A DNA stretch of 64,000 nucleotides from Escherichia coli (GTDB taxonomy: Bacteria > Pseudomonadota > Gammaproteobacteria > Enterobacterales > Enterobacteriaceae): NCBI RefSeq assembly GCF_029227855.1, contig NZ_CP074357.1, one strand, 5' to 3'. Made by a program: the position numbers. Below are positions 1 to 3,000 of this stretch, piece by piece (the stretch's first letter is position 1; the number at the start of each line of letters is the position of its first letter).

Positions 1-3000
1 GAAATGATAGTTATCTCATACGAACGATAGTAATGGAGTTTCTTAATGGGCGTTGATATCTGCTGGCGATTTCAAAGGGAAGAAAAGCCTGGTAAATGGA
101 TTAATTTATCAAGCAATTATAAAGGGGACCGATCATATCTCCACTTTGCCTGGCTCGGATTTGATGTAGATCGTGAAAGGGCGAGCACATCAGCAGTTTT
201 TATCCACGCATTACGCGGATTACCTGATGATATACCGTCCGAAGATGATGATTTATTCGGTGAACATTCATACTCATGGCTGACTTCGGAAGAAATTTTG
301 TCAGCCATACCACCCGATAACGCCGGAGAGGTGATCCAGGAATTTGTCGAAGAAGTAAAGCGTCTCCACGTGGAGAACGGCAGCGTCCGTTTCGTCTTTG
401 GATTTGAAGGGTAACCCGTAAGAAAGTAGCTATCTTACCCGGCTAGGTCTCCAATCTCTCAGATGCTCAAAGAGGGCCGGGCATGGTGCCCACACATCCC
501 CTACCATTCCGATTTGATATTCGTCTAATACACCCTTTAAAGAAAACAAGCAGACGGCAATGAGACGTCGGATTAGCGTCAGCAAATATGAGACGTCAGT
601 AGTCGATGTTTGTCCTGCGGAACGTGAATCTGTTTACAGGGGGTAAAGCCGTACCATCCATGAGGGCTCAGAGAGCCGGGGTCTCCTCCAGATCACTGGA
701 AGTTATTGACTCTGGCAGGCCTATCCCTATGACTTTTTCCCGGATGGCAAATTAAGATCGAACAGGGCCAAATTAGTACTCTTTTCTAAACGGAAATACT
801 GAATCACCCTGATATAACTGGTCTCTCACAAGACAGGAGATCATCAATGGAACGTGTAATATTTTCAGTAATCTTTTTTATGATGCTGGGCGTACCTTTT
901 TACCTTCTTTATAAAATTGCCCGGGACATTTTTGGGACCGCCGGTGCTGGTGAGCCTGCACAATTGCCTCAGGGCAAGCAAAGACGCTCAGGAGGCGCTG
1001 GTTCGGGTTCGATCTGGCAAGGACACCATCTACAGGGGAGCAGCCATTTGAACCCCCTCGGAGGTGATTGTAATGGTGAAAATAGCATAGCTGGTGGTTG
1101 TGATGGTGGCGGTGGAGGAGGAGGAGGAGGAGGTGGTGGTGGTGACTGATAGCCTGCAATTTTAACTATCAGGATGAAACCCATGTCCAGCAACCGGAAA
1201 AAGAATTCATATCAACCGAAAAGCCCTGCCTTAAAGTGAAGCGTATTAAACGTGAAGGATGCTGAATTAGAGGGTATCGGTTTTATACTGAAGCGTAACT
1301 GGAAGAAGGATCTGAAATTAACTATTACGGAAAAGTAACTTTCTGACTCACCACGTACGCCCCTCGGTTATGCCATACAGTTTGATACGAAAACAGATCA
1401 GTAAGTAGATTGCTATACGCCGGAGAGAAGTCTATTTTTCATACACCGAACCTGTTTGGCCTGCAATGGAAGCAGGTATAATAATCACATACAAAGGAGG
1501 GCATTATGAATAAATTTTTATACGTGCTTTTGGCCTGGATTGTTGTGCTTTTTATCGCCAACAAACTGCTCGCAAGACGTAAGCCCAAGACGGTTAAAAT
1601 CCTGGTACAGCGCAACGGGAAAGCCGCAGAGGTTGATGCTGTAGTGGTTCAGGGTTCAAAGAGAGCTAACAACAGTTCTGTTGCGGACAGCGACGCGGTA
1701 GATAGTTATTTTGAAATGAATCCTTACTCCCGCGAAAACCAGTCGAATGGTTGGGCTATGCTGGCCAGAGACGATGACCAGCTTAAATAATCAGTTGAGT
1801 GTGATGTGTAAAGCAGCTTAAAACTCTAAATGGACGAACAGGGGAGGTGACAAAGATGACAACCAATACAACAACGACCACCTACCGCTCAGAAGAAATC
1901 GTGCCGTTCAGACGGCCCAAAGGGGATCTGGATAGTCGGTATATGCCTCAGGTGTATGCAATGGTGCGGAACTGGGCAAGTAACCCTGCTCAATATGGTG
2001 AGGGTGTACTGGCCTCCTACCGCCAACCGGCAGTAAACCTTGCCTACCAGGTAAAAGGAACTCGTGTTGTTTTAATTCTGGTACCAGTAGAGTGCGAGCC
2101 ACCTGGAGTGATAATGACGGAAACAGTCCTGTGGCCGTCACTATCACTTGTAGAAGTCTTGCAGACCTTGCAGGAGGCCTGGCAAAATATTCCGGCGTTA
2201 AACCCCTGACGACTTCTGTCAATATCACCGGCTAGTGATTTACCTCTCTGCTGGTGGTCAGCCCGCCTAAGTTCAAATTATCTCTTTCTAAATTAGCCCG
2301 GATAAAAATCGGTCCCTCTAAAATAGCCTGCCCTGAGTAGGCTACGTCATACAAAGCGTTGGCCAGTCACCAGCTGGCTGGTGGCCATAATGCTCCACAG
2401 GATAAACCGTATCAGAACTACGCAAAGAAAAAGCCCCAACAATTTACCGATGGGGCCTTTTGCAGACATTTTACAGCCTTACCAATGATAGAGCGCTAAG
2501 GCTTCTGCTTAGTGAACAGACTTGCCCACAGATAATGGATAAAGTTGAGCAGAATGTATGTTACTCGTTGCTCGAATTTCATCGGGGCTTTGTACTTTGT
2601 CGTTATGTTGTGAATATGAGTAAGGTCCGTATAGAGCCCTGGCGACTTCCTTGTTGACTTCAACACCGAACAGATGTGCTGAACAGACTCCGGTGTGAAC
2701 AACCGTAGCCCTCGTCGTTGTTTGACTTTATGGATAAAATCGTCCATCCCCATACATAACCATTCCGGCTTGATGCCATCAAACTTACAACGTCCGTTTA
2801 TGATGACGACATTGATACATTCCAGTTCTCTAGCCTTAAGAGCAGACTGAATAGCCCTGATGTGCCCCTGGTTTTGCTTAAACGGGTTCTGCAACTTGAG
2901 GGTTCGGGACTGAGTCCATTTCCGCCAGTGGCTTTCCTCCAGAGTACCGTAGAGCTTGCCTACGTAGTTTTTCTGCTCTATGACGTATATACCATGTGGG

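Follow-up and report, generated by a model that had tools for sequence, protein, structure and literature searches.

Short tandem repeats lie within open reading frames (ORFs) at the simple-sequence contingency loci of Neisseria and Haemophilus, where copy number varies among close relatives and where expression is toggled by repeat units that are not a multiple of 3 nucleotides (nt) or by tracts located in promoters. Coding trinucleotide microsatellites and homo-amino-acid tracts, which serve as in-frame VNTRs for typing, gain or lose whole codons in disordered regions of the encoded proteins, and pure repeats of this kind are more variable than interrupted ones. The locus described here, a tract of glycine codons at the 3' end of a small ORF of the IncHI2 plasmid backbone, resembles both. 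It shares with the contingency loci a short tandem repeat in an ORF and a copy number that differs between close relatives, but its unit is a single codon placed at the 3' end, and changes affect the length of the tail only. With coding microsatellites it would share both mechanism and outcome, together with the greater variability of pure over interrupted repeats; the difference is that the protein in this case is an ORFan confined to IncH backbones. Its nearest described relative, by position and build, is ORF R0112 of the IncHI1 plasmid R27, which is listed in Table S2 of PMC4853401 as keratin-like (mouse keratin I), follows R0111, and lies within the interval removed in the Del8 deletion (96,151-101,814). 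Such a likeness is what a Gly-rich ORF would be expected to give, and R0112 was therefore identified as the counterpart of the IncHI2 gene. We found no earlier description in the literature of the Gly tract for IncHI2 plasmids. On balance, we lean toward the view that the ORF belongs to a genuine, weakly constrained, and nonessential family of small IncH membrane proteins with a length-tolerant, low-complexity tail, in which the run of 13 Gly is a lineage-specific expansion by slippage.

The window, that is, the whole stretch of 64,000 nt of Escherichia coli DNA that was analyzed, shares 100% identity in this region with hundreds of conjugative IncHI2 plasmids from E. coli, Salmonella, and Klebsiella, such as pSTM6-275, and 98.8% identity with a second group that comes mostly from Enterobacter and includes the archetype R478. 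The 100-codon ORF that had been placed at 847-1149 in the preliminary description is present when read from the window sequence, with an ATG start and an AGGAG Shine-Dalgarno (SD) sequence; it is 100% identical across hundreds of PLSDB plasmids and encodes a protein of 100 amino acids (aa), MERVIFSVIFFMMLGVPFYLLYKIARDIF...NSIAGGCD(G)13D. It is most likely a real gene of the IncHI2 backbone whose product would be made in IncHI2 hosts. The gene belongs to a run of small hypothetical genes on the same strand, convergent with the end of a DNA-transfer (Dtr) operon in which MobI, the MobH relaxase, the TraD coupling protein, DUF4400/TraJ, an S49 peptidase, and NERD follow one another. Annotation from 8 kb upstream to ~49 kb downstream, together with the Pfam assignments of the neighbors, yielded small hypothetical proteins, NERD, the S49 peptidase, DUF4400, TraD, MobH, and further Tra and accessory genes. 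The intergenic gaps around the ORF, of 432 and 356 nt, are unusually long; a small ORF in the upstream gap (606-755) was rejected, as an indel in a divergent relative breaks its frame. The features of the locus are collected in Table 1.

Table 1. Features of the Gly-tract ORF, its surroundings in the window, and its IncHI1 counterpart
Feature	Position	Strand	Basis or remark
Shine-Dalgarno sequence AGGAG	835..839	+	7 nt before the ATG; read from sequence
100-aa ORF, RefSeq hypothetical protein WP_000442694.1, IncHI2 backbone	847..1149	+	Annotation; PLSDB matches
N-terminal transmembrane helix, ~residues 4-25, then K23/R26	856..921	+	Predicted: Kyte-Doolittle, AlphaFold2
Antisense poly-Pro ORF, 74 aa, TTG start	969..1193	-	Complement of the Gly tract; judged spurious
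Tn10 target site CGCTCAGGA	985..993		Inside codons 47-49; near-consensus Tn10 target
C-terminal tail motif A-G-G-C-D-(G)13-D	1090..1146	+	Equivalent: A-G-G-G-C-G-G-G-G-D end of IncHI1/R27 counterparts
(GGN)13 tract, 13 Gly	1105..1143	+	Codons GGT GGC GGT (GGA)6 (GGT)4
(GGA)6 pure trinucleotide repeat	1114..1131	+	Copy number 4, 5, 6, or 8 in other plasmids
(GGT)4 pure trinucleotide repeat	1132..1143	+	Copy number 4-7 in other plasmids
Downstream gene	1506-1790		Start 360 nt past the tract; own promoter-like region at 1456-1485
R27 R0112, hypothetical protein WP_000925846.1, 77 aa	R27 96807-97040	Same strand as R0113 homolog	Synteny

Homology searches led back to the same plasmids. At E <= 1, the ORF matched no family in Pfam, NCBIfam, or PHROG, with a lone subthreshold TMEM208 match on the transmembrane (TM) helix, and scans of the same three collections with the ORF and three same-strand neighbors gave nothing usable. 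IncHI2 copies, truncated and frameshifted forms included, were all that emerged when 1.84 billion representative proteins were searched exhaustively with phmmer and 5.8 billion clusters with a k-mer prefilter, and the use of a merged IncHI1 and IncHI2 alignment as a profile gained no further plasmid families. Several database entries have frameshifted tails. No mention of the IncHI2 ORF or its protein was found in a literature search by accession and through IncHI2 transcriptomes, and a scan for promoters and terminators detected no promoter for the ORF. The only Rfam match at E <= 1 was a subthreshold one to Mu-gpT-DE over the ribosome-binding site (24 bits; gathering score, 49), which was taken as a chance match. 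The opposite-strand poly-Pro ORF that had been pointed out exists, with 13 Pro, but is a spurious mirror of the tract and was rejected: it starts at TTG, has no SD sequence or other ribosome-binding site, and is not conserved in IncHI1, where neither the start nor the length of the equivalent antisense ORFs is kept.

The hydrophobic N terminus noted earlier is borne out both by the Kyte-Doolittle maximum (mean of 2.24 over residues 4 to 22) and by AlphaFold2, which predicts a helix at residues 2 to 32 (pLDDT of 87 to 94) and a disordered remainder (pLDDT of <55). We propose a small protein that would be anchored in the inner membrane by its single N-terminal helix, the rest forming a disordered, acidic, Gly/Ser/Gln-rich tail that closes with a conserved A-G-G-(G)-C ... 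G-run-D end. By the positive-inside rule, the K and R residues after the anchor predict that this tail is cytoplasmic.

The tract is much longer than chance would produce: in 300 first-order Markov simulations of the window, the longest (GGN)n run averaged 3.8 units and never exceeded 6, whereas 13 are observed. It is the sole homo-amino-acid run of at least 7 residues in the window, in any frame, and TRF places a period-3 array at 1092-1144. The number of consecutive Gly residues is 13 rather than the 14 first counted, and the statement that the ORF ends in a GGN run holds in that the tract falls within the last 15 codons, but a GAC (Asp) codon stands between it and the TGA stop codon. GGA is a rare codon in E. 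coli, and six of them in succession are odd for a well-expressed gene.

Alleles were counted with allele-specific queries of ~160 nt against PLSDB (975 records). The window allele, (GGA)6(GGT)4, is carried by 470 of these (~48%), and an interrupted allele, GGA GGA GGT GAC GGA (GGT)4, which encodes GGGGGGDGGGGGD and is the form found in R478, is carried by 426 (~44%), so that the two commonest alleles together account for ~92% of the plasmids; other combinations of (GGA)4-8 and (GGT)4-7, with 11 to 15 Gly, make up ~8%. Alignments and extracted tracts yielded the further alleles (GGA)5(GGT)4, (GGA)4(GGT)4, (GGA)4(GGT)5, (GGA)5(GGT)6, (GGA)4(GGT)7, and (GGA)8(GGT)4. The suggestion that the tract is prone to slippage is supported by this variation in repeat length among related IncHI2 plasmids, in which GGA occurs in 4, 5, 6, or 8 copies and GGT in 4, 5, 6, or 7, and all sampled repeat-unit variants consist of whole codons that preserve the frame and the GAC-TGA end. 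Three sampled records have a 1-nt indel, which falls within the tract in two of them and in a T run close to the 5' end in the third; sequencing error may account for these. In a more distant variant, GGDGGGDGGGD is read in the Gly frame, the contig having lost 1 nt upstream. We infer that the tail contains a compound (GGA)n(GGT)m trinucleotide microsatellite, at which replication slippage would add or remove whole codons; the tail would then drift between 11 and 15 Gly without a change of frame and with nothing switched on or off, and its length is probably close to selectively neutral. The long uninterrupted Gly run is probably derived, having expanded in a single IncHI2 lineage; in its place, plasmids of the R478 type have GGGGGGDGGGGGD and IncHI1 has GGGCGGGGD.

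The gene downstream of the tract has homologs in IncHI1-type plasmids that are 58 to 60% identical to it, and these are directly preceded, on the same strand, by a small ORF (77 to 88 aa), represented in R27 by R0112. R0112 and its IncHI1A/B-type relatives agree with the IncHI2 ORF in position and strand (directly upstream of the R0113 homolog and convergent with the end of the Dtr operon), in SD context (ACAGGAG or AAAGGAG, 7 to 8 nt before the ATG, in the IncHI1 counterparts), and in build, which comprises a TM helix (MLLNIALILYVAVCLYLCL in IncHI1) with a basic cluster behind it (RNKKALYR in IncHI1), a hydrophilic and disordered middle, and a C terminus of the form A-G-G-(G)-C-x-Gly run-D-stop. 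The IncHI1 locus is likewise convergent with traI/MobH, TraG/TraD, TraJ(DUF4400), the S49 peptidase, and NERD. IncHI1 tails are composed of Gly, Asp, and Cys and end in DAGGGCGGGGD-stop, the window ORF ending in IAGGCD(G)nD-stop, and IncHI1 and IncHI2 can be aligned at the DNA level over the 3' end, GGTGGTGA(C/T)TGAT, and over the downstream gene's promoter region. The differences lie in the Gly run, with 4 residues in R0112 versus 13 here and no long homopolymeric run in the IncHI1 tail, and in the upstream neighbor, a DUF905 gene in IncHI1 versus a 122-aa ORF in IncHI2. The length of the IncHI1 tail varies by insertions of GDAGCGA-type units. Because comparison of the IncHI2 and IncHI1 proteins was not significant either by BLASTP (E = 2.9) or by hhalign (probability of 31%, with a collinear alignment of residues 36-57 to 35-56), we base the proposed orthology on synteny, on architecture, and on the short end conserved in both groups.

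Purifying selection on the IncHI1 counterpart is weak. Across four IncHI1-type lineages (pS of 0.24 to 0.35), the frame stays open through several in-frame indels outside the repeat, dN/dS ranges from 0.43 to 0.67 (one-sided Fisher P values of 0.006 to 0.035 in 3 of 6 pairs) versus 0.06 to 0.43 for neighboring genes, and the last 11 codons show synonymous differences only. The microarray signal of R0112 is also weak: on a scale of arbitrary units with an expression threshold of 100, it measured 92 at 25°C and 165 at 37°C, barely above threshold, and its neighbor R0113 reached ~2,650 (PMC7366339).

The IncHI2 gene is dispensable and nonessential, because Tn10 (IS10 ends, tetB) splits it in R478 and in 24 other PLSDB plasmids, and a 219-bp deletion (window positions 902-1120) has removed most of it from pEGY49_MCR-1.1, leaving 18 codons. 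Tn10 sits after codon 49, with the 9-bp duplication CGCTCAGGA on both sides, and the 64-aa truncated product is found in 460 contigs in the protein collection. R478 is self-transmissible, and another Tn10-bearing plasmid, pSW37-267106, is typed as conjugative. In R27, Del8 was obtained and was stable, and only deletion 16 lowered stability (PMC4853401).

These disruptions also bear on the main alternative, which we consider unlikely although it merits attention, namely, that the IncHI2 ORF is nonfunctional, either a spurious frame or a decaying remnant, and that the tract is a DNA microsatellite in nonessential backbone. The exhaustive HMMER search found nothing outside the IncHI2 ORF, some 49 open frames of at least 100 codons would be expected by chance in 64 kb on our estimate, and the ORF has unusually long gaps on either side, is interrupted by Tn10 in R478, and has undergone deletion or frameshift in other plasmids. 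Its divergence keeps pace with that of its flanks, at ~5.5% from the most distant relative versus 6 to 8% for the noncoding flanks (the most distant IncHI2 copies are 90 to 97% identical), and nonsynonymous changes predominate, with 12 against 6 synonymous among the unique IncHI2 substitutions, a number too small for dN/dS and indistinguishable from neutrality. In the most divergent relative, a Logan contig, a 1-nt deletion puts the Gly tail out of frame. A spurious frame would not be expected, however, to have a strong SD sequence at ideal spacing, nor an IncHI1 ORF at the same position that retains the architecture and terminal motif despite nucleotide divergence of ~20% or more, acquires its indels in frame, and has a dN/dS below 1; a signal for R0112 is, moreover, detectable on the R27 microarray (PMC7366339). 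R0112-type proteins might constitute a conserved membrane-anchored factor, specific to IncH, in which the invariant Cys-Gly-Asp C terminus is functionally important, as a thiol or metal site or as a partner or substrate of the plasmid's own Dsb/thioredoxin-like protein or S49 peptidase, with the length of the Gly spacer tuning activity. We hold this to be distinctly improbable; if it were true, slippage-driven variation in spacer length would give a resistance plasmid a contingency mechanism that works by degrees and not as an on/off switch.

Further readings, to which a Gly tract or a hydrophobic helix might point, are each unlikely. A phase-variable switch had been suggested, and it is true that repeat number differs among closely related plasmids and that 1-nt indels affect the tract, or the sequence ahead of it, in three records. 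With a unit of 3 nt, however, with each sampled unit-number variant in frame, and with its location in the last 15 codons, the tract is most unlikely to be an on/off switch. Even a frameshift at this extreme 3' end would alter only the last few residues, the next start codon is 360 nt away and has its own promoter-like region, which is conserved separately, ~92% of plasmids have one of two alleles, and the 1-nt indels are singletons that may be sequencing errors; a contingency switch by which repeat number toggles the ORF or the neighboring gene is accordingly highly improbable. It seems very unlikely that the ORF encodes a small membrane toxin belonging to a type I toxin-antitoxin or postsegregational killing module, even though its product is small and has one hydrophobic helix, the plasmid is large and low-copy, and the untranslated flanks are long and conserved. 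At 100 aa and with a long hydrophilic tail, the protein is atypical for such a toxin; the conserved flanks fold with no unusual structure (z = -0.2 and -0.7); Rfam returned nothing above threshold; no promoter-like site was found on the minus strand between 400 and 2500, which is a weak test; and Del8, which removes the counterpart, left the stability of R27 intact (PMC4853401).

We give next to no credence to the further suggestion of a secreted or microcin-like peptide, whether a Gly-rich bacteriocin precursor resembling that of microcin B17 or one of class II. The core of McbA, the microcin B17 precursor, is rich in Gly, Cys, and Ser, and the resemblance to a Gly-rich tail with two Cys residues (C75 and C85), and with conserved Cys in the IncHI1 counterparts, is superficial and confined to composition, namely, a Gly run with interspersed Cys. 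In place of a leader peptide, the ORF has a 20-residue hydrophobic membrane anchor followed by K/R, with a tail predicted to be cytoplasmic, and no double-glycine-type leader (no GG/GA motif) was seen. No ABC exporter, HlyD-type, immunity, or modification genes of the YcaO or McbBCD type, and no mcbBCDEFG-like neighbors, are annotated from 8 kb upstream to ~49 kb downstream, and the protein matched no microcin family in Pfam or NCBIfam. The R478 copy, furthermore, is interrupted without any linked immunity issue.

In summary, the finding is an ordinary one: an in-frame coding microsatellite in a nonessential ORFan has little biological weight as it stands. It concerns, nonetheless, a clinically important family, as IncHI2 plasmids are carriers of mcr-1, mcr-9, oqxAB, and carbapenemase genes. 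R478 is now documented as a natural Tn10 knockout, which should be useful to anyone testing the function of the gene. The practical value of the tract is as a plasmid-lineage marker: (GGA)n(GGT)m, whether or not GGT GAC interrupts it, offers an inexpensive way to separate E. coli/Salmonella-type from R478/Enterobacter-type backbones and resolves sublineages. Profile searches miss the R0112-type family because its members are short and of low complexity, and by linking an IncHI2 hypothetical protein to R27 R0112, we propose a small conserved protein family of IncH plasmids and provide a pointer to a group that has been overlooked.

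The MobI-MobH-TraD transfer operon ends distally in genes for a NERD-domain protein, an S49 peptidase, and a DUF4400/TraJ-like protein, and these run convergently toward the cluster of small ORFs that contains ORF 847-1149; this convergent arrangement is kept in the IncHI1 plasmid R27 (R0115-R0117). The noncoding gaps on either side of the ORF (see the table) are unusually long compared with the 45 to 185 nt found elsewhere in the cluster, and they are conserved to about the same degree as the ORF itself. Homology to a divergent Logan contig (L017) sets in abruptly near position ~575, before which the contig has a different upstream gene, and the region from ~575 to ~1500 thus behaves as a single module. 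Neither gap yielded an RNA structure signal (z = -0.2 and -0.7) or an Rfam family; a subthreshold match to Mu-gpT-DE RNA at 807-849 (24.4 bits versus a gathering score of 49; E = 0.013), overlapping the ORF's ribosome-binding site, is probably due to chance.

Features in and around ORF 847-1149
Feature	Position	Strand	Details
Upstream noncoding gap	415-846		432 nt
Tn10 target site CGCTCAGGA	985-993		9 bp, duplicated by Tn10
Downstream noncoding gap	1150-1505		356 nt
TTGGCC-N18-AATAAT	1456-1485		Upstream of gene 1506-1790
AAGGAGG	Within 1420-1510		Before ATG at 1506
Downstream neighbor gene	1506-1790		94 aa, WP_001032029.1; R27 R0113 homologue
NERD-domain protein, S49 (SppA-like) peptidase, and DUF4400/TraJ-like protein genes	2496-5101	-	

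The downstream neighbor has the same architecture as the ORF: it too encodes a small protein in which an N-terminal TM helix is followed by a basic cluster and then a hydrophilic tail. Its upstream region (1420-1510) is nearly identical in IncHI1 and IncHI2, despite ~40% divergence of the protein between the two groups, and R0113 is among the more highly expressed non-tra genes of R27, at ~2,650 arbitrary units (PMC7366339).

In IncHI1A-type counterparts of ORF 847-1149 the terminal unit is duplicated, as GGCGGGGDAGGGCGGGGD, and in several database entries a frameshifted tail reads through into Val-rich sequence, which reflects frameshift alleles that are real or else G-runs that were misread in sequencing (L023, 2913-3188; proteins P0026 and P0037-P0039). 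A clean deletion of 219 bp (902-1120) in pEGY49_MCR-1.1 (NZ_MW719568.1) starts in the TM-coding region, ends in the (GGA) tract, and brings in a stop codon after 18 codons. R478 and 24 other IncHI2 plasmids carry Tn10, comprising IS10 ends, tetB, gltS, and jem genes, within the ORF and flanked by the 9-bp duplication; because of this insertion, the ORF of R478 is a natural knockout in the archetype IncHI2 plasmid.
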